Shown here: in pieces, positions 25,486 to 43,925 of the stretch | How positions within the stretch are numbered: the first letter of the stretch is position 1 | Layout of the letters: each line of letters opens with the position of its first letter | Sequence record: PZ496580.1 | Reading direction: 5' to 3' (one strand) | Source: a phage | Length of the DNA stretch: 64,000 bases | The notes under the pieces: model-generated | What the model was told of the DNA's origin: nothing | The model's input: only the letters and a program-made list of their open reading frames with translations | Databases searched by the model: none | Made by a program: the position numbers and the translations under genes

Positions 25486-25815
25486 TTAAATCAGTTTAAA
25501 GAAGTTTTCGTTTACATTTTCTTCGGTGATTGCTGTCTTAAATTCTTGACCGTTATCCGGTGTGATGAAATAACGGTCAGAATAATCACGAAAACGTTTT
25601 AAGTGAGATACTCCAACATTAACACCATTTTCCCAGAAACGAAAGGTAATCATTTTTGGTTCATATCGATAGTCGCTGGTTAACACAGTACCATCACCGC
25701 GACGGGCTTCATAAACCGTAATACACTCACGATTAGCGGCTTTAAGGCATTCTTCAATAGTGCCGCACGAGATAATACTTACTGTTTCATCTACGATTTG
25801 TTCTACTGTCCACAT
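25486..25815 (-). CDS. hypothetical protein (109 aa)
   Basis: ORF track; frd-32 spacer as T4 frd.x genes. Confidence 0.45.
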   Translation of the reverse strand: MWTVEQIVDETVSIISCGTIEECLKAANRECITVYEARRGDGTVLTSDYRYEPKMITFRFWENGVNVGVSHLKRFRDYSDRYFITPDNGQEFKTAITEENVNENFFKLI

Positions 25816-25846
25816 AATATAATCCTCTCTTTGTTTCGATGTTTGT

Positions 25847-25874
25847 ATTATACATCATCTGTATTCGGTGTCAA
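25847..25874 (-). promoter_or_regulatory. sigma70-type early promoter cassette
   Basis: approx; TTGACA-16-TATAAT. Confidence 0.45.
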
Positions 25875-26200
25875 CCTTTTTGTTCCATGAAAAGCGGTGC
25901 TGTTTCTTCTTTCAGTTTGATAACTAGCGCGGAAACTTCATCAAGAAAATCTTTTTCCATATGAGCAAGCATTGATTTAGAATCTTTGATGACTTTCAAA
26001 GAATATTCACTTAGATTTCCTTTTCCTAACAATAATGCGGGATACACACTATGTGGGATCTCGATTTCGTGATATTCGCTCATAGTATAATATTTGTGAA
26101 TTTTTAAATCTATATTTCTTCGTTGTACGTCTACATCAGCAATGACATACAGAAGTTCGATTTTATCACTTTTCTGGGAAAGGGTAGCATTCAAAAACAT
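25871..26200 (-). CDS. hypothetical protein (109 aa)
   Basis: ORF track. Confidence 0.45.
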   Translation of the reverse strand: MFLNATLSQKSDKIELLYVIADVDVQRRNIDLKIHKYYTMSEYHEIEIPHSVYPALLLGKGNLSEYSLKVIKDSKSMLAHMEKDFLDEVSALVIKLKEETAPLFMEQKG

Positions 26201-27288: not shown

Positions 27289-27348
27289 ATTCACTATTCC
27301 TTCTTTTGATTAATTTACTAGACTATTATACAGATTTAAATTTACTTG

Positions 27349-28029
27349 TCAACTATTTGTTTCGGCTTTTAATTGAGATATTTCTTTACACTCTTTAACT
27401 ACTTTAACAAATAATGCTCTTGCTTTTGCGGCGTCAATAACAAGTAGTTTCTTGTACGCCTTCATTTTAACACTATAAGTTTGCCAAATCAAGTCTTTGG
27501 CTACCTTGTCGTGTTCGTCGATTATATTTAGAAAGCTATCTAACAACATAAACGACTCAAACGATATAATCCGATTTTGCAGTAGTTTAAAGATACCGCT
27601 AGTTTCGGTTGCGGGATTGTATGTAATTAGCTCTTTAAGAGTAACCCCGCGTTTCTCGGAGAAGTATACCAGACTTTTAATGTCATCGTCAAATCTTGTT
27701 GCTGCATCGGTTATCTTTCCTATGTATTCCATATAAAAGCCGTATGCGTCAACATCAGTGATTTCACCTACCCATGCATCGGTATTAGCTACCAGATTGC
27801 TTAGGAATAGGAAGTATAATTCTCTTAGATTGTACTTTTCCGCTAATTTCGCGAAATAATACTTATCTCTGCGTTTATTGAATGCGGCATCAGACAACCG
27901 CATCCTCCAATTGTATTTTACGCAATCATAACGCCCGTTCATATGAGCTTTCATCATGCAATATAACATATACACAGATTTAGCATTAATTCGCATATCT
28001 GGATCTGGAGGAAGACGGTTTCTGATCAT
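27349..28029 (-). CDS. 59: helicase loader
   Basis: 226 aa; KSVY.LY.M.K.HMNG.YD..KYNW.MR.SDAA..KRRDKY.F.KL matches T4 gp59. Confidence 0.85.
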   Translation of the reverse strand: MIRNRLPPDPDMRINAKSVYMLYCMMKAHMNGRYDCVKYNWRMRLSDAAFNKRRDKYYFAKLAEKYNLRELYFLFLSNLVANTDAWVGEITDVDAYGFYMEYIGKITDAATRFDDDIKSLVYFSEKRGVTLKELITYNPATETSGIFKLLQNRIISFESFMLLDSFLNIIDEHDKVAKDLIWQTYSVKMKAYKKLLVIDAAKARALFVKVVKECKEISQLKAETNS

Positions 28030-28038
28030 ACATACCCC

Positions 28039-28308
28039 TTAAATATCGAGAGTGTTGGTCGGTTCGTCGATCACTCCCTTCCTGAGCGTTCTATTTACTA
28101 TACATTCTTGTGTGATCTTGTCAATAATGGACACCGGAATATACTTCTGATAGTGACCATATTCGATAGAGTTTTCCTCTACAAACTGCGTTGTCGCTTC
28201 AAGATAAGTCAATCCCTCTTCAACAACCAGTTTTTCGATTGCAAGACCGTTTGCTGTTTTGTTCGCGGCTTTTACCGCATGTTCATTAAGCATTGAACAC
28301 CCGATCAT
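28039..28308 (-). CDS. 33: late-transcription accessory protein
   Basis: 89 aa; YLEATTQFVEENSI matches T4 gp33 core; true start may be the internal MLNEH. Confidence 0.65.
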   Translation of the reverse strand: MIGCSMLNEHAVKAANKTANGLAIEKLVVEEGLTYLEATTQFVEENSIEYGHYQKYIPVSIIDKITQECIVNRTLRKGVIDEPTNTLDI

Positions 28309-28561
28309 AGAGTTCTACTGCCTCGTCGCGTTCTGCTTCGAAAGTTTCGCGCTGTTGTTGGTGATACAGTTTAAACAGAATGCCCCACATTTTACCGTCT
28401 ACGCCTAATTCTTCTTTAGCACGCTGCTTGATCTCTTTGATCTTATCGCCATATGCTTCTTGAATGGTTTTCTGATCGCTGGCTTCTTTAATCAGTTGTG
28501 CCAGGGTATTTCCGTGCACTGCTTCGTCAAATACTACTTTTTCTTTTTTCTGTTCAGTCAT
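28286..28561 (-). CDS. hypothetical protein at dsbA position
   Basis: 91 aa charged protein between 33 and rnh side; assignment by position only. Confidence 0.35.
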   Translation of the reverse strand: MTEQKKEKVVFDEAVHGNTLAQLIKEASDQKTIQEAYGDKIKEIKQRAKEELGVDGKMWGILFKLYHQQQRETFEAERDEAVELYDRVFNA

Positions 28562-28565
28562 AATA

Positions 28566-29165
28566 TTAACCCTCTTTAGTCATTAATTGAAAACCACGTT
28601 CAGCTTTTGAGATTTCGCTAGGACTTAAATCGTCACCCACATATTCTAGCATCATTTCTCGGATAATGTCAAGTGCTTTTTCATCACCTGATTTTAACTC
28701 GAACTCAAGTTCATAGTGAGCAACATCACCAATTGATTCACCAAATTTGCCATAGTAGAACGTGTCTTTGCACATTTCAACTATACCACATCCCATATCT
28801 AGAGTCAATGCCTTGCGATATGTCAATACTTGCAATCGAGGAATGACATGGTCTGAGTTTACGCCTAGACTATCAACATAATGATCAAAATCATCCCATT
28901 TTGAAAATGTCATCTCCTCTCGGTTGAATAGCCCAGATTCAGCACTTCCTACTTTGACCATGACCAATGATCTGTTAAAGTCAAGTCGTGCATAAATTCC
29001 TTTTTGACGTAACGCATGATCTTCGGTATCATAATAAAATTCGTGTTTTAATATGTTATCTCGGTCTACGAGATTGTACCCGTCATACATTGCTACCCAC
29101 AAATCACAGATGGTTTCGACGCCAATTTGTGAGTGTGCATAGTATTTTAATTCAAGTTCTTTCAT
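28566..29165 (-). CDS. CYTH-domain (triphosphate tunnel metalloenzyme) protein
   Basis: 199 aa; N-terminal ELELKY (ExExK), FYYDTEDHALRQKG.YARL and C-terminal YELEFELK acidic strand motifs typical of CYTH. Confidence 0.5.
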   Translation of the reverse strand: MKELELKYYAHSQIGVETICDLWVAMYDGYNLVDRDNILKHEFYYDTEDHALRQKGIYARLDFNRSLVMVKVGSAESGLFNREEMTFSKWDDFDHYVDSLGVNSDHVIPRLQVLTYRKALTLDMGCGIVEMCKDTFYYGKFGESIGDVAHYELEFELKSGDEKALDIIREMMLEYVGDDLSPSEISKAERGFQLMTKEG

Positions 29166-29175
29166 ATGTCAACCC

Positions 29176-30123
29176 TTAGAACTCACCAATTTTCTGCAAC
29201 ATTTTAACTAACGCATTTGTTACAAAATAGTTATAAATTTTACCGCGTGGTGCTGGTTTAGATTTTTCCCATGCTAACAAAATTTCATATTCGATGTTAT
29301 CGGGAATAAATTCAAAATCAATAAGTTCGCGGTTTTCGTCAAAACGTCGTGCTTCTTCCTCTGTCATCAAAGACTTTGGATCTTCGGCATCGAAAATTTG
29401 CTCTAACCATTTGGTTGCAATTGGTTTAGCTCGTTCCCCTTCCAGTCGTGAGATAATGAAATCACTACGGCACTTGATAGAAGCTACACCGTCTTTTGCG
29501 TCACCCTTAACACATTTTACCATAAGGTCTTTGTAAGGGCTACCATATTTGCATTTCTTCCATGCTTTCTGTACTGGCGCCCACTGTTTCACGTTTTTGT
29601 ATTTGTGCAACTGTGTGTAGTCACCATCGCCGGAGTTGATCAGCACCTGACGACCTTCTACAGAAAACTTTTTAGTTAGCACAGCGATTATATCATCCGC
29701 TTCAACTTTGTCAACCTTAATAACGTGATAAGGCATGTTCTCTTTAAACTCTTCGGTGATCTTATTGATCGCAGCAAAGATCATCTCCCAATCACGCGGA
29801 TCTGCGTCTCGTTTTTCCTTACGGTTGCGTTTATAGTAAGGTGCGATATCACGTCGCCAGTAACCTTTGCTTGAATCAAAAGCAAGTACAGTAATCGGGT
29901 ATTGCTCTTTGAATTTTGTCATATTATAACGCATGGTGTCAAGAATAAGATGACGGATCATGCCTTCACTAATAGGATCTTCCGGTTTAAAGGTATGAGA
30001 GATAGTAGCAATCATAAGTTGAGACATATCAATCAAATGCACACCTTCCGGTAGTTTATCTTCTGGATCATCAAAAAAATCATTAAGTGTAGCGGTAGTT
30101 TTTGTAAACGGGTTATACGTCAT
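29176..30123 (-). CDS. rnh: RNase H / 5'-3' flap exonuclease
   Basis: 315 aa; FEN-family acidic clusters (VLAFDS, EADDIIAVL, SGDGDYTQL); position before tail-fibre genes as in T4. Confidence 0.8.
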   Translation of the reverse strand: MTYNPFTKTTATLNDFFDDPEDKLPEGVHLIDMSQLMIATISHTFKPEDPISEGMIRHLILDTMRYNMTKFKEQYPITVLAFDSSKGYWRRDIAPYYKRNRKEKRDADPRDWEMIFAAINKITEEFKENMPYHVIKVDKVEADDIIAVLTKKFSVEGRQVLINSGDGDYTQLHKYKNVKQWAPVQKAWKKCKYGSPYKDLMVKCVKGDAKDGVASIKCRSDFIISRLEGERAKPIATKWLEQIFDAEDPKSLMTEEEARRFDENRELIDFEFIPDNIEYEILLAWEKSKPAPRGKIYNYFVTNALVKMLQKIGEF

Positions 30124-30125
30124 AA

Positions 30126-30311
30126 TTAAGTTCTCTCCACTCTCACAACAACATATTCGCCAAACGAGTTAGATACTTCACGATCATACCCGTATTTCTC
30201 CATAACTCGCAGAATTGCATTGTTTAATTCGGCACGGAAATAATTGTAATCCTTATCTGGGATTCTGTCAACTATCCATTTTGCACCGTCTGACAAATCA
30301 ACTTTAACCAT
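30126..30311 (-). CDS. hypothetical protein (61 aa)
   Basis: ORF track. Confidence 0.35.
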   Translation of the reverse strand: MVKVDLSDGAKWIVDRIPDKDYNYFRAELNNAILRVMEKYGYDREVSNSFGEYVVVRVERT

Positions 30312-30350
30312 AATATATCATCCTCTTTTGTTTCTATCAAGCCTTATTTT

Positions 30351-30358
30351 ATAAATAT
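30351..30358 (+). promoter_or_regulatory. T4-type late promoter
   Basis: exact TATAAATA about 28 nt upstream of gp34 ATG. Confidence 0.7.
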
Positions 30359-30385
30359 GAACATACTATAAAAGGAGACCCAATA

Positions 30386-33300
30386 ATGGCAGATTTTTCT
30401 CAACATTTCAAGGCCACATTTGGCTTTGACGCTGGTAATGAAAAGGTCGTCAATGTAGCATTGGCTGATAAGAATGTCAACACCGATGCGGTCAACGTTG
30501 AATTTTTCAATTACCATAATGGTATTACTCAGTATGACACAACTCGCGGTTATGATCAATACGGAACTACAATCTATCAAAACCGCCCGTATTATGCAAA
30601 AGAAGATATCACAAAGCCAGCAGGTGATTTTGACCCGACTAAATGGCAAGCACTGCGCACGGACCCACGTTGGGATTATATTGCAGCAACTTCCGGTGAT
30701 ACTCCTTTAAAGTCTGGTGATTATATCGCAGCAGATGGTCAATTTGCAAACTTGACTTTCTCTATGCCAAATAAACCAGCAGAGGGAGACACTATAACAG
30801 TAAAAGATATCGGTGGCAAGTGTGGTGTTAACGAATTATCGTTCTTGAGTTCAGGACATGAGTTTTACCATAACGGTAATGTGTATAACCGCAAATGGTA
30901 TTGCACTACCCCGTATGCAATGAACTATTTCATCTTTGTTCGTAATCGTTGGCATGTTTATCAGACGGGAACAGAGCCACGCGGTGTGTACGCACAACCA
31001 GCGATTGATGCTATTCAAATGCAGAATGGTGATCAGGTATTTCGTCGTAGTTCGTTGGGTAATATTACCTTAGTGCTTCCTAAGTTTGCCAACAATGGCG
31101 ACATGATCCAAACTACAGATCTTGACGGGTTAACCGCAACCAACCACGTTACGGTTAAAGTTCATGAGCACGCAGAAGAACAATCAATTGGCACGTTCGG
31201 TCTAAAAGAGATTATCGGTAAGCGTAGCGGTCATGGTGTATTCATCTTTGACAAGCCGGAAAACTTATGGCGTGTGTGGGATGGTGATCAGTCTGTTCGT
31301 CTTAAACCGATCATCGATGACACTCGCTTGCAACCTAATAGCTATGTTGCTGTATTTGGTGATCATGATGTTACTCTGACGCTGCCGACCAATGTCGAGC
31401 CGGGTGATCGTATTCAAGTTTCTATGCAGTATATGCACGGAAACCAGAATTGCCGTATTATCACCGCCGCAGAGGATACAAAAATCCTTATGCAGAAAAA
31501 TATGGTTCAGTTTCCTAAGCGTAGCGAGTACCCATTCAACGGGACCGAGACATGGAAGGAAGTGTCTGAATTGTCGTTCAATGCGGCTAGTGATTATGTA
31601 CCTTATCTGGAGTTCTCTTATTCAGAAGGTGATGATGGTAAGAAACATTGGCTGGTAGCACACTCTCATCCGATCGTCGAACGAGTAGACCCTACTCGTA
31701 AAGAGCGTGTTGGTGTAATTGCACTGGCTACCCAGACTGAAACGAATAAAAACCATGAAGAGAATCCTAGCGACGAAGTTGCAGTAACACCAAAAATGCT
31801 GGCTAATAAAACCGCCAACGAAACTCGACGCGGTATTGCTCGTATTGCTACTCAGGCGGAAACGCATCAAGATACTGGTTCCAGCTTCCTGGATGATGTT
31901 ATCGTTACACCTAAAAAGTTAAATGACTGTGTTGCTACCGAAGCCCGTCGTGGTGTGATGGAAATTGCAACCCAGCACGAAACCAATGAAGGTTTAGATG
32001 ATACCCGCGCTATTACTCCTAAGAAATTAGAAGAACGTCGAGCGTCCGAGGATCTTGCTGGTATTGCTGAAATTGTTCAGGTTGGCGGTCGTGCTGCCGC
32101 TCGACGTGGCGAAGCTGGTACAGGGATCTATAACATCAACGACCATGCTAAAATTGTTACGCCACAAAACATCAACGAAGTTAAGGCGACAGAAACTTCC
32201 CGTGGTGTTGGCTATCTGGCAACTGACGCGGAAGTGCAAGGGGCTACAGAATCAACCCCGCAAGATGCTTTACTAATCACGACTCGCACGCTAACGAAAC
32301 GTACTGCTACCGAATCGCGTACTGGTATCGCTGAAATTGCAACTCAGGAAGAAACAAACTTAGGTCAAAGTGATAACCATATCATCACGCCTAAAAAGCT
32401 GCATACTCGCCGCGCAACGGAAACTTTACACGGTTTAGCAGAAATTGCAACTCAGCCGGAATTTGACGCAGGTCGTGACGATGCTCGCATTTCTACCCCA
32501 TTGAAGATTAAAACCTTCTTTGAGAATGCACAGCGCTTGAAAGTAGATCCGACTCAGGGGCTTAACCTTACTGGTGATTTGTGGCAAGGTATCATGATCA
32601 GCGGTCTGGATGCAACCGAAGACACAAAAGGTGTCGCTAAAGTTGCTACTACTCAGCTTACGGATGCTGGTCAAGATGATACTACAATCATTACTCCTAA
32701 AAAGCTGCAAGGCAAAAAGGCAACCGAAGGTAAAGAAGGTATTATCCGAGTTGGTACTCAAGCCGAAACCGTGGCTGGTACACTGGCTAATGTAGCAATT
32801 TCTCCGAAGAACTTCAAATATGTTGTTCAGACAGAGGATACATGGAAAGCAACCGAAGCGCGTCGTGGTTTCTTGAAAGTTGCTACTCAGGAAAACTGTT
32901 TTGTTGGTGACAATCTGCAAGGTTCTACTCAAGAACTAGTAAACTACCCGCATGACGGAATTGCTGTTACCCCGAAAGGATTAAACTATGCACTTGCTAA
33001 TTTCTTACCTAAGATGGCAACCGCTCAGAATAGTTTGAAATTGGGTAACGTAGAGGCCGCTAAATGGGCGCGTAGAGACATTGACCAGACCATTGAGAGC
33101 AATTACACGTTTAATAAAAACGTTAACGTGAAGGGCGATTTAGAGTGCTTAAAATCAGGTTCCTTTGAAACTCTGTATGTGACTAAGAACTCTACTGATG
33201 ATCCGAGTAATGGTCATCTGGTGTTGGGTGAGCGTGGAGTTGACGGTCACACCGGAATTACTCTGCATGGCACAACAGAATCGGAAGGTATGGAAAACTC

Positions 33301-37028: not shown

Positions 37029-37063
37029 ATATTATTCTAATAACCGTTTAAGGATTTTATAAA

Positions 37064-39976
37064 ATGGCAGATTTAAGCAGAATCCAATTTAAACGCACTA
37101 GCACTAAAGGTCGTCGACCTGATGCTGGTACGATGAATCCGGGGGAATTGGCAATCAACCTTGCGGATCAATATCTTCTTACTAAAAATGATTCCGGTGC
37201 TATTATCAATTTAAGTTGTCCTCCGGTTTATGACCGCGATGTTACAATGGCTGGTAAAGTTAAAGGTAATAATTATATCTTAAGTAAAACCGCTAACTAT
37301 TTGGAAGACCAGACAGCGAGAGACCTTAACTACTTTGGTGCTTTCCGTACCAATGGTCTTGATGGCTTTCTCGAACTCACGCTAAACGTTCCTCATTCTT
37401 CTGGTGTTCAGCATGGTCGAGGATTTACTTTCCAGTATGGACACACTGGATCACGAGTAGAAACCTATGGCTATAATAGAGAAGGTCAAAAAGCATTTAG
37501 CTATAAAATGTATCACGAAGGTGATAAACCAACTCCTGGAGAATTGAACGTTTACAGCAAACAAGAAGTTGACCGTATGTTTGTTAAAAACGTTAAACTT
37601 GCTACAGTTCCTGTTGATACCGTTGAAGGCTATTTTAAATTAGCAACTGCAATGATTCCACAAAACGGTCGTAGCGTATTTTTCCGTATTCATGGCGGCA
37701 ACGGATATAATGTTACTGCATACGATCAAGTTGATATTGTAGAAATTGTTATTCGCAGTGGAAATAATCGCCCTAAAAGTGTTAACGTTATTGCATATCG
37801 CCGAAATACAAACAAATCATTTGATGTTTTGGCTGTTAATACTTCTGGTGATAACTATGATATCTATGTGAAATATCAGCGTTACACTGATAACGTTATT
37901 GTTGAATTTGGTAAAAGTGTTGATGTTAATCTGGTAGTTCATGACGTTCCAGACTTTGTTGCTGACCGTCCTGCTGGCGATAATGTTATTGGCGGTCGCG
38001 CGGTAACTCTTTTCAACACCGAAAACAAACGCGGTGTATTGAGTTTTGACGATAACACACAAAATAGTTATGATATTGTTCACTTGAGTAATGATAAAGG
38101 TACTGGACGAAAATATATTCGTAAATTCCGTAGCAACTATAACGAAATGATCTGGCATGAGACTGTTCAAGGTAATACATATCGATTGGCAACCGGAACG
38201 ACTGATGCATCGGAAGTTTTTAGAATTACTAGTCGCACCATGTTTACTGGTAAAGGTGTATTTGATGCCGGACAAAACGTTCTTAGATTAGAGCGTCCTA
38301 GTAACCAATCAAACTATATTGAATGGCAAGATCGCCGAAATGGTGCTGATGCTCGTCAAGGTTGGATCGGTTTTGGTAGTGCTGAAACAAATAACTTCCA
38401 ATGGTATAGCGATCACGGAAAAAACTCATTCCAGTTGGATGCTAATGGTCAATGCTCTATTACTACTGGTGCGACCAAAATTGTATATACCAACGGACAA
38501 TATTATTCCGCTAACTCTGATGCATATCGTATGATCTATGGCAATTACGGTGCATTCTGGCGCAATGACGGGACTAAAGTTTATCTTCTTTCCACCAAAG
38601 AAAATGACCGTTTTGGTGGATGGAACGGCAACCGACCATTCATTTACGATTTGACGACTGGTAAAGTTACTTTAGGTGGTGACGGTAACGAAGGTGCATT
38701 AGTTCTTGAAAGAGATAGCCGTGCGGCTAGATTTGCTGGCGACATTTACGTTGGCAAAGGGATGTTAACATTTGATGCCGGACGATTAAATTCTCGTGAT
38801 TACTTCCGGTTTAACCATTGGGGCGATAGCAATAACGCGCGTGATAACATCCTACAGCTTGACGATAGCAAAGGTGCACACTTCACCACTGAACGTACTT
38901 TAGCAACTGGTGCGATTAAAACTAAATTCTTCGGTGATTTGGAATCTGCTGGTCAGATTAAATGGGGTAAAGGGACCGCCACATCTACGTTTACTATACG
39001 TGTTTGGGGTGCTGATGCTCGTAAACAAATATTTGAATGCGGCGATGAAAGCGGGTGGCATTGGTATACACAGCGTGCTGGTGGACCGGGAACTCCCGCA
39101 ATTGATTTTAGTATTAACGGTACTGTAAGGCCGCAAACTATGGATTGTGGCGGTAATATCACCCTTCGTGGTGCTGATATTGAATTTAAACGAAGCGGTA
39201 ACAAGCATTTATGGTTTAGAGATCCAAACGGATTAGAATTGGGTTTGATTTATTGTGATGATGCTGGTGTTATTCGTGTCCGTGGTGAGAAGTCGACCGA
39301 AGTATGGAAATTCTCGGCAAAACAGATTCATTTAGAAACGGGTACTGCCGGAAATGGTGTAGGCTTGCTTCGTGGTGCTGTAGGTGGTGGCGCATGGACT
39401 CAATGGAGAGATCGTGGTACTGGTTTGCAGGTTGACTGTCAGCAATCAGAAAACTCAGCACACAACATATGGCGAGCGACTCATCAAGGCAAATACCATC
39501 TTGCAGCAATGGGTGTTCATGCATCCGGTGGTAGTGTTGCTAATACCGTTGTTAGATTACATGTCCATGACTCAAACTATGATTTCACTGCGGTTGGTGA
39601 CTTCACCGCAGGTCGTAACGGTTCGTTTAACGATGTGTACATTCGTTCTGATGCTCGCCTTAAAATCAACAAGGAAGAGTATAAGGAGAATGCCACCGAT
39701 AAAGTTAATCGCTTGACGGTATATACCTATGACAAGGTTAAATCTTTAACCGACCGTACTGTCATTGCTCATGAAGTTGGTATTATTGCTCAGGATCTTG
39801 AGAAAGAATTGCCAGAAGCAGTAACAACCTCGAAGATCGGCGACGGTGATACACCAGAAGAGATCTTAACAATTTCTAACTCTGCTGTCAACGCTCTTTT
39901 AATTAAGGCGTTTCAGGAAATGAGCGAAGAATTGAAAGCCGTTAAAGCTGAACTAGCGGAACTTAAAAAGAATTAA
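37064..39976 (+). CDS. 37: long tail fibre distal subunit with C-terminal intramolecular chaperone domain
   Basis: 970 aa; N-terminus MADLSRIQFKRTSTKGRRP..GELAINL matches T4 gp37; C-terminal ~110 aa has SDARLK...GIIAQDL...coiled coil typical of S74-type auto-cleaving chaperone. Confidence 0.85.
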   Translation: MADLSRIQFKRTSTKGRRPDAGTMNPGELAINLADQYLLTKNDSGAIINLSCPPVYDRDVTMAGKVKGNNYILSKTANYLEDQTARDLNYFGAFRTNGLDGFLELTLNVPHSSGVQHGRGFTFQYGHTGSRVETYGYNREGQKAFSYKMYHEGDKPTPGELNVYSKQEVDRMFVKNVKLATVPVDTVEGYFKLATAMIPQNGRSVFFRIHGGNGYNVTAYDQVDIVEIVIRSGNNRPKSVNVIAYRRNTNKSFDVLAVNTSGDNYDIYVKYQRYTDNVIVEFGKSVDVNLVVHDVPDFVADRPAGDNVIGGRAVTLFNTENKRGVLSFDDNTQNSYDIVHLSNDKGTGRKYIRKFRSNYNEMIWHETVQGNTYRLATGTTDASEVFRITSRTMFTGKGVFDAGQNVLRLERPSNQSNYIEWQDRRNGADARQGWIGFGSAETNNFQWYSDHGKNSFQLDANGQCSITTGATKIVYTNGQYYSANSDAYRMIYGNYGAFWRNDGTKVYLLSTKENDRFGGWNGNRPFIYDLTTGKVTLGGDGNEGALVLERDSRAARFAGDIYVGKGMLTFDAGRLNSRDYFRFNHWGDSNNARDNILQLDDSKGAHFTTERTLATGAIKTKFFGDLESAGQIKWGKGTATSTFTIRVWGADARKQIFECGDESGWHWYTQRAGGPGTPAIDFSINGTVRPQTMDCGGNITLRGADIEFKRSGNKHLWFRDPNGLELGLIYCDDAGVIRVRGEKSTEVWKFSAKQIHLETGTAGNGVGLLRGAVGGGAWTQWRDRGTGLQVDCQQSENSAHNIWRATHQGKYHLAAMGVHASGGSVANTVVRLHVHDSNYDFTAVGDFTAGRNGSFNDVYIRSDARLKINKEEYKENATDKVNRLTVYTYDKVKSLTDRTVIAHEVGIIAQDLEKELPEAVTTSKIGDGDTPEEILTISNSAVNALLIKAFQEMSEELKAVKAELAELKKN

Positions 39977-40988: not shown

Positions 40989-41232
40989 GGTGCATAGAAG
41001 CCCCTGAATCACATTTTGACGCTGTATGATGAAAACAGGTAGCGTACCAGTCATCGGCTTGTTTGTCTTCGTCAGAAAACGCGTAATTTCGTTGTATACC
41101 GTTTTCTACTTTGACCAGTGCAATAGCTGTTTCTGGAAGATCAATCAATCGAACAAAATCACCATCTTCCCACTCTACACGAGCAATATCATAGCCCATC
41201 TCAAAATAAACAATCGCTTGTTCTAATTTCAT
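40984..41232 (-). CDS. hypothetical protein (82 aa)
   Basis: ORF track. Confidence 0.4.
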   Translation of the reverse strand: MKLEQAIVYFEMGYDIARVEWEDGDFVRLIDLPETAIALVKVENGIQRNYAFSDEDKQADDWYATCFHHTASKCDSGASMHQ

Positions 41233-41576
41233 TCTGGAAACTTCCCGTAAATGTTCTCTGCCAGCTTACGTGCATCGCTAATAATATCTTTCATGTGATG
41301 GTCGTATTGCTTTGCCATAATAAGAATACAATCAATGAAGAATGAATAACGTCTAGAATTTACTAAAAAGTTTTTACCTAGTGAATCAAACGGATCTAGA
41401 TCATCAAGTTCGATAGATTCTCTAACTTTAGACAATTCTTTCATTACAAGGTTTACATCGTTTATAATATCTTTTGATTTATATGCGCCTTTCTTTAACA
41501 ATATGGCGGTCAATTCTGACGCAGTTTCTTGAAATTCTTTCTGATAAGCTGAGTTTACATCATCGATATTAAACAT
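41229..41576 (-). CDS. hypothetical protein, tandem paralog 1 (MFN..D ... ENIYG)
   Basis: 115 aa; shares N- and C-terminal motifs with 41586..41918. Confidence 0.45.
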   Translation of the reverse strand: MFNIDDVNSAYQKEFQETASELTAILLKKGAYKSKDIINDVNLVMKELSKVRESIELDDLDPFDSLGKNFLVNSRRYSFFIDCILIMAKQYDHHMKDIISDARKLAENIYGKFPE

Positions 41577-41585
41577 AATCGCCTC

Positions 41586-41918
41586 TCAAATATTGCCGTA
41601 AATGTTTTCAGTCATGGTTCTTGCTTCTTCCAGCATTTTGGTCATGCTCATGGTGTAGTTGTTATCTCGTACAGACTTAATAACGACAAGCAAGGAATCT
41701 AGGAAAACTTTATATACTCTCCATTTTACGCTATTGTTGAATAGTTTTATATCTTCTACTTTATCGATCAGATAACCTAAAACAGATAGCGCCTCGTTCA
41801 CTTCTTCCGTTACTTTACTGCCACTAAACCAGATGGGGTAAAGCTGGATTGACAGCGACCGTGCTGCCTCTTTCAGTTCGGTCGCCTTCCATGATTCATA
41901 TTGATCAAAGTTAAACAT
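41586..41918 (-). CDS. hypothetical protein, tandem paralog 2
   Basis: 110 aa; MFNFDQYESW...TENIYGNI. Confidence 0.45.
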   Translation of the reverse strand: MFNFDQYESWKATELKEAARSLSIQLYPIWFSGSKVTEEVNEALSVLGYLIDKVEDIKLFNNSVKWRVYKVFLDSLLVVIKSVRDNNYTMSMTKMLEEARTMTENIYGNI

Positions 41919-42864: not shown

Positions 42865-43164
42865 TTATTTTCGGTTGTGGTCACGATATGTTTTAAAATA
42901 TCCCTCGTACCACGGTAAAACATCTGGATTTTTACCACTATACAGACTTTTAACCATCATGTCAATAAGACCGTCCGGTGTTTGATAATTACCAGCTTTT
43001 ATAAGCTCTCTGATTAAAATCTCTCTGTATATGTCTTTAGGATCTTCGTAATCAACTTGTATTGTGGTTGTTGTCTCGCTTAATTTGGTTTCTGGGGTAT
43101 CTTGCATCGCCTTCCACCAATCTTTTGTAATCTTCATGCTGTTGAATTTCATAATTATCTGCAC
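42865..43164 (-). CDS. hypothetical protein (99 aa)
   Basis: ORF track; overlaps upstream gene by 10 nt. Confidence 0.4.
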   Translation of the reverse strand: MQIIMKFNSMKITKDWWKAMQDTPETKLSETTTTIQVDYEDPKDIYREILIRELIKAGNYQTPDGLIDMMVKSLYSGKNPDVLPWYEGYFKTYRDHNRK

Positions 43165-43925
43165 CCGTACTGGTCAACATAGATTTTAGAGTATCCTTGT
43201 TCGCGGACTTCTAAGCGAATGATATCGCTATCCTGTTCACGCCACACATAATACTTTTTATTTTCTTTCCAGCCGCTAAAAACGATCATTCCGTTGTCAT
43301 CAACTACTCGTTTTGTGTTTGCCTTATGCACATCATTATTGTCGATGTATGTAAAATGGATAATCTGACCATCTTTTACTTTCAGAGTCAATTCACCTGG
43401 ATTGTACTCTTTATAAAATGGCTGTGCTTTCGGCTTAGTGTTTGCTCCGTCGATATTTTTCCATTTAAAGTGAGATTCACATTGCAAGGTAAACTCGCTG
43501 GTTTGTGGTTTCTTTTCTTTCTTCGGTTGCTCTACCACTTTTTCTTCCTGTTTCGGTTGTTGTTCTTCGTCAACCTTAACGGAAGTCTCTGAATCGCTTT
43601 CTGACGCGGTTTCTTCTTTAGGTAATACATTCATCAAGTTTTGAATTTGAGCGTTATATACAGCCTCCAGTGGCTGAATCTGCCCGATATTGATCATAGT
43701 ATCACGAACAGTTTTATTCCAGTTGCGTTGCTCTTGTTTCAGAGACGGATCAATCTTAACAGCCTTAACATACACCTCATGAAGTTTCGAATCCAGTGCG
43801 GAGATTGACTCATTAGCACAAATAAACTTCTCTGATTTGGTAGTAGCTTTAGCGCAATCAAAGGACGCAGCATTGGCACCGAAAGCAGTAGCGGAAAGAA
43901 CGATAGCAGCGATAATGTTTTTCAT
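43155..43925 (-). CDS. secreted protein with LprI/DUF1311-like N-terminal domain
   Basis: 256 aa; signal peptide MKNIIAAIVLSATAFGANA; FDCAKATT.EK.IC....ALD..L...Y......EQRNWNK.VRD resembles lysozyme-inhibitor LprI family; Lys/Glu-rich linker. Confidence 0.45.
   Translation of the reverse strand: MKNIIAAIVLSATAFGANAASFDCAKATTKSEKFICANESISALDSKLHEVYVKAVKIDPSLKQEQRNWNKTVRDTMINIGQIQPLEAVYNAQIQNLMNVLPKEETASESDSETSVKVDEEQQPKQEEKVVEQPKKEKKPQTSEFTLQCESHFKWKNIDGANTKPKAQPFYKEYNPGELTLKVKDGQIIHFTYIDNNDVHKANTKRVVDDNGMIVFSGWKENKKYYVWREQDSDIIRLEVREQGYSKIYVDQYGCR

Follow-up and report, generated by a model that had tools for sequence, protein, structure and literature searches.

A predicted stand-alone YgiF-lineage triphosphate tunnel hydrolase with a remodelled tunnel and a mosaic exterior in Krischvirus phages

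[quoted passage not shown] I propose, with a probability of roughly 0.55, that this gene encodes a stand-alone TTM of the YgiF lineage without the CHAD domain, that the substrate side of its tunnel has been rebuilt in favour of an organic triphosphate, and that its exterior resembles that of a protein at an interface with the host. The enzyme class is the firmest part of this proposal, as the pattern of residues makes it very probable that the product is a catalytically competent TTM hydrolase, whereas the preference for an organic triphosphate, nucleoside- or thiamine-type, is suggested by the tunnel residues only tentatively. What is new is the exclusion of an adenylate cyclase annotation, a phage-specific Y-x-R-x-D motif in the tunnel, deep synteny, and a mosaic hypervariable cassette within the gene.

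Membership of the CYTH superfamily was already on record. Nolan et al. (2006) tabulated RB49ORF244c as a CYTH domain (E 0.0026), the RefSeq note for RB49 reads "similar to ... ygiF", and the record of G5211 cites the CDD family CYTH-like_Pase_CHAD (the YgiF-type family, cd07756). The original prediction, made in ignorance of the earlier RB49 domain annotation, had likewise called a CYTH or triphosphate tunnel enzyme, and this call stands on motifs, on a family profile and on structural matches. The three sequence blocks it quoted are all present (ELELK at residues 3-7, FYYDTEDHALRQKGIYARL at residues 43-61 and YELEFELK at residues 151-158), and the comparison with CYTH structures that it recommended recovers the tunnel fold with YgiF as the closest solved relative. 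In the literature on phage TTMs I found only the 2006 Pfam table and speculation concerning jumbo phages.

Single-sequence evidence for the family is marginal. The protein scores 23.6 bits against Pfam PF01928, where the gathering cut-off is 23.2, and a single-sequence search of the PDB is marginal too (E 0.44), so that a family profile was needed; this profile matches YgiF with an E of 2e-13. The protein has the eight-stranded antiparallel beta-barrel tunnel fold that characterises the CYTH superfamily, and its structural matches also include CyaB structures and Cet1-type RNA triphosphatases. By every method, sequence and structure alike, YgiF is the closest relative that has been both solved and characterised. 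Scans of the protein against NCBIfam and PADLOC gave no match. The polyphosphate-binding CHAD domain is absent, the phage protein stopping 8 residues past the plug-helix motif (199 residues compared with 433 in YgiF). The nearest stand-alone cellular CYTH proteins (P0044 and P0046) are 32-34% identical to it, and an alignment-based scan of genome contigs shows cellular relatives to be widespread in Gamma- and Betaproteobacteria; a genome-contig scan with P0046 returned no match.

The catalytic residues are conserved throughout. In alignment A1, E3, E5, K7, R60, R82, E84, R117, E152, E154, E156 and K158 are invariant, as are S186, K187, R190 and G191 of the plug helix, and K71 does not vary across either the 44-sequence phage set or alignment A2. 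In the register of the YgiF alignment, phage E3, E5 and E156 correspond to YgiF E4, E6 and E162, which ligate metal site 2, the site responsible for activating the attacking water (PMC4641920); phage E154 corresponds to the metal site 1 ligand E160, a glutamate that is invariant across all TTMs (PMC4641920); and phage R60 corresponds to the catalytic R56. R82 and E84, R117, and the plug-helix residues K187 and R190 (SKAERG, compared with SKAARG in YgiF) all have YgiF matches as well. Crystallography and mutagenesis have established that the matching YgiF residues bind two metals and inorganic triphosphate (PPPi) (PMC4641920). An apparent loss of the equivalent of YgiF Lys69, at which the phage protein has V70 and 135 of 149 cellular sequences have Lys, was rejected as an alignment artefact: the phage beta4-beta5 hairpin is one residue shorter, which causes the apparent shift, and by strand register K71 faces E84.

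The same residues bear on a label found in GenBank, where four records (PHB13, AV108, KMB43) name the product an adenylate cyclase. Class IV cyclases are distinguished by the extended motif HFxxxxExExK, by an Ala that replaces the second Glu of ExE, and by a small residue where other CYTH enzymes have the central Arg (Vogt et al., PMC8233210). The HF motif four residues ahead of ExExK is absent from the phage protein, which begins MKELELK and has no room for it, while ExE (E154-F-E156, not ExA) and the central Arg (R60) are intact and invariant. Class IV identity was rejected on all three of the discriminating motifs, and the GenBank label is therefore unsupported. The phage enzyme is predicted to be a hydrolase rather than a cyclase, more precisely a two-metal hydrolase of the gamma-phosphate.

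The substrate side of the tunnel departs from that of cellular relatives. For this comparison I set 44 phage-clade sequences against the 149 best cellular representatives, assigning tunnel-facing positions by strand parity anchored on the catalytic residues. At position 58 the phages have Tyr (42/43), whereas the cellular proteins have A, G, S, V, T or I, with a small residue (A, G or S) in 130/149 and an aromatic in 0/149. At position 62 the phages have Asp (43/43), whereas the cellular residue is Arg (143/149), the counterpart of YgiF R58. At other positions predicted to face the tunnel, Phe replaces the cellular His at position 80, Thr replaces Glu or Asn at 86, Thr replaces Phe at 115, and His replaces Ile at 150. 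Each of these differing positions is conserved inside the phage clade, and the small-x-Arg-x-Arg of YgiF-type beta-3 strands is absent from the phage protein, which reads Y-A-R-L-D.

This beta-3 segment aligns with W53-L-R55-R-R57 of human thiamine triphosphatase (ThTPase), for which I used a THTPA query sequence identical to 3tvl_A, although the hhalign match is weak (probability 1.6%, 27 columns). The motif W/YxRxR is a published determinant of ThTPases (PMC8233210), in which W53 stacks against the thiazole ring of the substrate (PMC4641920, PMC8233210). In the phage protein Y58 and R60 fall at the W53 and R55 positions, and D62 replaces R57. At the sequence level the protein does not belong to the ThTPase cluster, the hhalign match covering only the YYDT...R segment, and a profile search of the PDB did not retrieve ThTPase. 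Y-x-R-x-D may thus be read as the aromatic hallmark of an organic-triphosphate binder, set beside the plug helix, with its last Arg turned acidic; it is a lead and not proof. Taken together, Y58, D62, F80, T86, T115 and H150 are the reason why an organic triphosphate is thought likelier than bare PPPi.

The protein diverges far more than the products of adjoining genes. Against RB49, the window's rnh product is 96.5% identical, DsbA 100%, gp33 100% and gp59 99.6%, compared with 86% for the CYTH protein; against Skers the corresponding values are 97%, 99%, 100% and 99%, compared with 60%; and against the metagenomic T4-like contig L010 they are 99%, 97%, 99% and 100%, compared with 56.5%. Nucleotide identity to Skers and L010 falls to about 0.45-0.6 from ~29140 to ~28722 and is 0.95-1.0 on both sides, which delimits a hypervariable central cassette and a conserved 3' block (Table 1). 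Synonymous divergence (dS) in the cassette ranges over 0.27-0.62 inside the main clade and reaches saturation in comparisons with Skers and L010; in the flanks it is 0.1-0.2. The cassette is under purifying selection, with a ratio of nonsynonymous to synonymous divergence (omega) of 0.19-0.42, compared with 0.01-0.09 for rnh. The nearest allele switches from one cassette segment to the next, and in the four-gamete test 44% of informative site pairs are incompatible. The figure for rnh is 35%, so recombination is general in Krischvirus genomes. Predicted tunnel-facing positions have an entropy of 0.54, compared with 1.09-1.23 for outward, helix and loop positions. Among about 80 genes that the window shares with Skers, most of them more than 90% identical, the CYTH gene is the third most divergent, exceeded only by the distal tail fibre gene (45%) and a small phrog_9457 open reading frame (ORF; 49.5%). 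The enzyme interior is thus protected and the exterior diversified by the exchange of old alleles, a pattern that is compatible with, though no proof of, selection at a host interface. Separately, a patch at ~29260-29320, in the 3' end of rnh on the minus strand, has a nucleotide identity of 0.65-0.68 to RB49 and Skers and 0.95 to L010, and forms a small mosaic stretch just upstream of the CYTH gene.

The gene is old and its position is fixed. Its product was found in 59 of 59 Krischvirus records and, among 50,697 phage records, only there; tblastn queries from the two metagenomic alleles at the greatest distance matched no cultured phage beyond Krischvirus, and a search of IMG/VR added only three further Krischvirus copies. 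Metagenomic T4-like homologs at 57% (L010), 47% (L003), 38% (L009) and 30% (L012) identity are without exception the direct upstream neighbours of dsbA-33, and are downstream of rnh wherever the contig extends far enough. Since this synteny holds down to 30% identity, the gene is a long-standing accessory of the Krischvirus lineage that has kept its position, rather than a recent insertion. In one isolate, vB_EcoM_G2494 (G2494; MK327935, L023, 301-896), a 1-nt deletion near codon 59 has led to the annotation of two hypothetical proteins, and the split reflects an error of sequencing or else a knockout that arose naturally.

By homology with complexes of YgiF, AtTTM3 and ThTPase, a first Mg2+ or Mn2+ ion would bridge the substrate to E154, and a second, held by E3, E5 and E156, would activate a water molecule for cleavage of the terminal phosphate. 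The substrate would be a small-molecule triphosphate that loses this phosphate, bound in a tunnel whose substrate side has been rebuilt, with Y58 at the position of the ThTPase Trp and a phosphate-binding Arg replaced by D62, together with the four further replacements. As an accessory gene long retained by Krischvirus, it would have had its exterior diversified by allele exchange, as might be expected at a phage-host interface.

Several points weigh against this proposal. YgiF, the nearest characterised relative, is specific for inorganic PPPi. The argument from Tyr58 rests on the weak hhalign register and on strand parity; position 58 is V or I in the phage alleles that are the two most distant, although these do have D or N at position 62, and the ThTPase motif is only half present, its last Arg being Asp. 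The elevated dS, which reflects exchange of old alleles, and the pervasive recombination mean that hypervariability alone is no proof of an arms race. The timing of expression is deduced only from how the genes are packed and from matches to promoter consensus sequences, the gene is frameshifted in isolate G2494, and no functional study of any phage TTM was found in the literature.

The specificity of YgiF makes PPPi the default substrate by plain homology. The enzyme would then be an inorganic triphosphatase (PPPase) or short-chain polyphosphatase that clears PPPi during infection, as metabolite housekeeping. All the PPPi- and metal-binding catalytic residues are kept, the closest cellular homologs adjoin the phosphate-transport genes PhoU_div and PHO4, and some GenBank records already say inorganic triphosphatase. 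PPPi could come from deoxynucleoside triphosphate (dNTP) triphosphohydrolases, of which E. coli Dgt is one, from corrinoid adenosyltransferases, or from the breakdown of polyphosphate. However, the phage clade has Asp for a phosphate-binding Arg and Tyr where 149/149 cellular relatives are non-aromatic. PPPase activity in E. coli is mostly that of inorganic pyrophosphatase and deletion of ygiF has no measurable effect, so the benefit to the phage is unclear, and housekeeping leaves unexplained why the gene ranks among the three most divergent of the shared genes. I regard a plain PPPase as the strongest competitor, albeit an unlikely one.

A more specific form of the organic-triphosphate proposal is that the enzyme serves in counter-defence or counter-signalling by taking the terminal phosphate off a host signal that bears a triphosphate. 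The ThTPase-like tunnel would hydrolyse a host stress or immune triphosphate, such as thiamine triphosphate (ThTP), a molecule of the deoxyinosine triphosphate (dITP) type or some other messenger derived from a nucleoside triphosphate, and the exterior would record an arms race with some factor of the host by which the enzyme is recognised or inhibited. Such signals exist: dITP is the messenger of Kongming-type immunity, made with phage deoxynucleoside monophosphate kinases, and ThTP accumulates in E. coli under amino-acid starvation. No microbial ThTPase is known. The Tyr lies at a determinant position of ThTPases, and the mosaic and fast allele exchange, comparable to that of the tail-fibre tip, leaves the tunnel lining conserved; the destruction of a triphosphate-bearing small-molecule signal is a possible fit to such evolution. 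Yet the PADLOC and NCBIfam scans gave no match, the protein falls in no known anti-defence family, the anti-Kongming factor known so far, T5 Dmp, is another enzyme, W/YxRxR is present only in part (as Y-x-R-x-D), and sequence similarity to ThTPase is negligible. In this specific form the proposal is improbable, and clearly more so than a plain PPPase.

The original prediction had also suggested processing of RNA 5' ends. As an RNA 5'-triphosphatase, the enzyme would convert ppp-RNA to pp-RNA, either to supply the decay of host mRNA or to act alongside the polynucleotide kinase (PNK) and RNA ligase A that the phage encodes. Cet1-type enzymes of the superfamily are among the structural matches, but the protein has neither a PF02940 (mRNA_triPase) match nor its closest similarity to Cet1-type enzymes, and this role is judged very unlikely. 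For jumbo phages, CYTH enzymes that degrade nucleoside triphosphates, and thereby exclude an unmodified nucleotide, have been proposed; sanitising of the dNTP pool for modified DNA was rejected here, since RB49 DNA carries unmodified cytosine, which makes exclusion of an unmodified dNTP unlikely. Least probable is a class IV (CyaB-like) adenylate cyclase making cyclic AMP or another cyclic nucleotide, for, despite the GenBank label and the CyaB structures among the fold matches, the motif rules contradict the cyclic-nucleotide messenger that the original prediction had considered.

The surroundings of the gene (Table 1) bear on its expression. The ORF starts 10 nt past the rnh stop, its own stop codon lies 4 nt ahead of the dsbA start, and genes 33, 59 and 32 follow downstream of it and dsbA (Pfam). 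This tight packing, together with a perfect TTGACA-16-TATAAT site within rnh (29714-29687, from a promoter scan), suggests that the gene probably shares its transcript with those for replication (rnh, dsbA, 33, 59 and 32). Sigma70-like sites also lie at 29172-29144, across the CYTH start codon, and at 28672-28643, in the conserved 3' block. The latter does not keep its place in the distant alleles, although two of these three (L009 and L012) carry a TTGACA-type site of their own in the same 3' stretch ahead of dsbA, a hint that the 3' end of the CYTH gene may contain a promoter for dsbA. The dsbA Shine-Dalgarno sequence, AAAGAGGGT, lies inside the last CYTH codons at about 28569-28577. Over 27300-30700 (minus strand) there are 25 sigma70-like matches where 11.6 are expected, with a further perfect consensus at 27352-27325, upstream of gene 32.

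Table 1. Coordinates, in the window, of the CYTH gene, its motifs and segments, and its two neighbours.
Feature	Coordinates	Strand	Remarks
CYTH/TTM gene	28566..29165	-	ATG start, 199 aa; homolog of RB49p245 / RB49ORF244c, phrog_14893
ExExK motif E3-L-E5-L-K7	29145..29159	-	invariant (20/20 aligned sequences; 43/43 sequences of the phage clade that cover the site)
Beta-3 motif Y58-A-R60-L-D62	28980..28994	-	register to YgiF and human THTPA
Beta-8 acidic strand E152-L-E154-F-E156-L-K158	28692..28712	-	invariant in the alignment
C-terminal plug-helix motif S186-K-A-E-R-G191	28593..28610	-	YgiF counterpart SKAARG
Hypervariable mosaic central cassette	28722..29141	-	420 bp, aa 9-148; from nucleotide identity and dS
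Conserved 3' block of the gene	28566..28721	-	aa 149-199; backbone-level nucleotide identity
rnh (T4 RNase H / 5'-3' exonuclease)	29176..30123	-	upstream neighbour; Pfam
dsbA	28286..28561	-	downstream neighbour; Pfam Phage_DsbA, 5.4e-22

The 2.4 kb surrounding the gene are 95-96% identical to ECD7, JSE, RB49 and about 55 other records. In T4, rnh is directly adjacent to dsbA and the CYTH gene is absent from that position, so the original prediction was correct in taking this to be an extra gene without a T4 counterpart. On the other side of rnh, a 61-aa ORF (phrog_3594, 30126-30311, minus strand) lies between gene 34 and rnh and is kept in all the Krischvirus loci examined; T4 has no annotated gene between rnh and gene 34.

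Elsewhere in the window, other loci vary as well. At 41229-41576 and 41586-41918 (both minus strand) lie tandem paralogs of phrog_9457, for which Skers has a single copy, 49.5% identical, among neighbours at about 98%; the pair is another hypervariable locus. The distal long-tail-fibre gene (37055-39955, plus strand) is 45% identical to that of Skers, which also has an adhesin gene without a counterpart in the window, and the host-range module has been swapped. A 256-aa phrog_14799 protein (43155-43925, minus strand), with a weak match to the Pfam lysozyme inhibitor family LprI (2.1e-5), is 68% identical to its Skers homolog, compared with about 98% for its neighbours. In the region 25486-26200 (minus strand) a 109-aa phrog_16287 gene is 75% identical to its Skers homolog and adjoins an orphan ORF (25871-26200) without a PHROG or Pfam match. 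Skers has a GIY-YIG nuclease near the equivalent place and an HNH endonuclease between genes 59 and 32, both missing from the window, which also lacks the segG that T4 carries between 32 and 59.

TTM enzymes are ancient and versatile, and the CYTH gene described here is a core gene in a whole genus of coliphages that are candidates for therapy. Its fixed position across very deep divergence, together with a divergence like that of a tail-fibre tip, is a pairing commonly seen in proteins that come into direct contact with the host. If the substrate is indeed a triphosphate-bearing signal, the enzyme would represent a new kind of phage counter-measure and possibly the first microbial handle on ThTP biology or on immune messengers of the nucleoside triphosphate type. 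If it is a plain PPPi hydrolase, the gene is an ordinary accessory metabolic gene, and the main value of this analysis lies in correcting the "adenylate cyclase" annotations. Because RB49-type DNA is unmodified and can be cleaved by Cas9, knockouts and allele swaps should be easy.

With E. coli YgiF (PDB 5a60 and 5a61), which joins CYTH to CHAD, the phage protein shares 24-25% identity, and it differs in the missing CHAD, in Y-x-R-x-D instead of G-x-R-x-R on beta-3, in the shorter beta4-beta5 hairpin, in F80, T86, T115 and H150, and in its mosaic evolution. Stand-alone YgiF-like CYTH proteins of proteobacteria (about 200 aa) equal it in size, architecture and catalytic set; unlike it, they keep small-x-R-x-R and a longer beta3-beta4 loop that ends in QTLK, and its closest cellular homologs have phosphate-transport neighbours whereas the phage gene adjoins replication genes. 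From the mammalian 25-kDa ThTPase (THTPA; PDB 3bhd, 3tvl and 5a64) it is separated by the lack of significant sequence similarity and by an Asp where THTPA has the third motif residue Arg, ThTPases forming a sequence cluster of their own. CyaB-type class IV cyclases share with it the TTM fold and the two-metal centre, but not its lack of the HF motif, its second Glu of ExE or its central Arg. Finally, other viral CYTH or TTM proteins, namely the CYTH triphosphatases of jumbo phages, the CYTH proteins of Aeromonas phages and the capping triphosphatases of giant viruses, belong to the same superfamily and are distant structural matches to the phage protein (TM 0.3-0.55).
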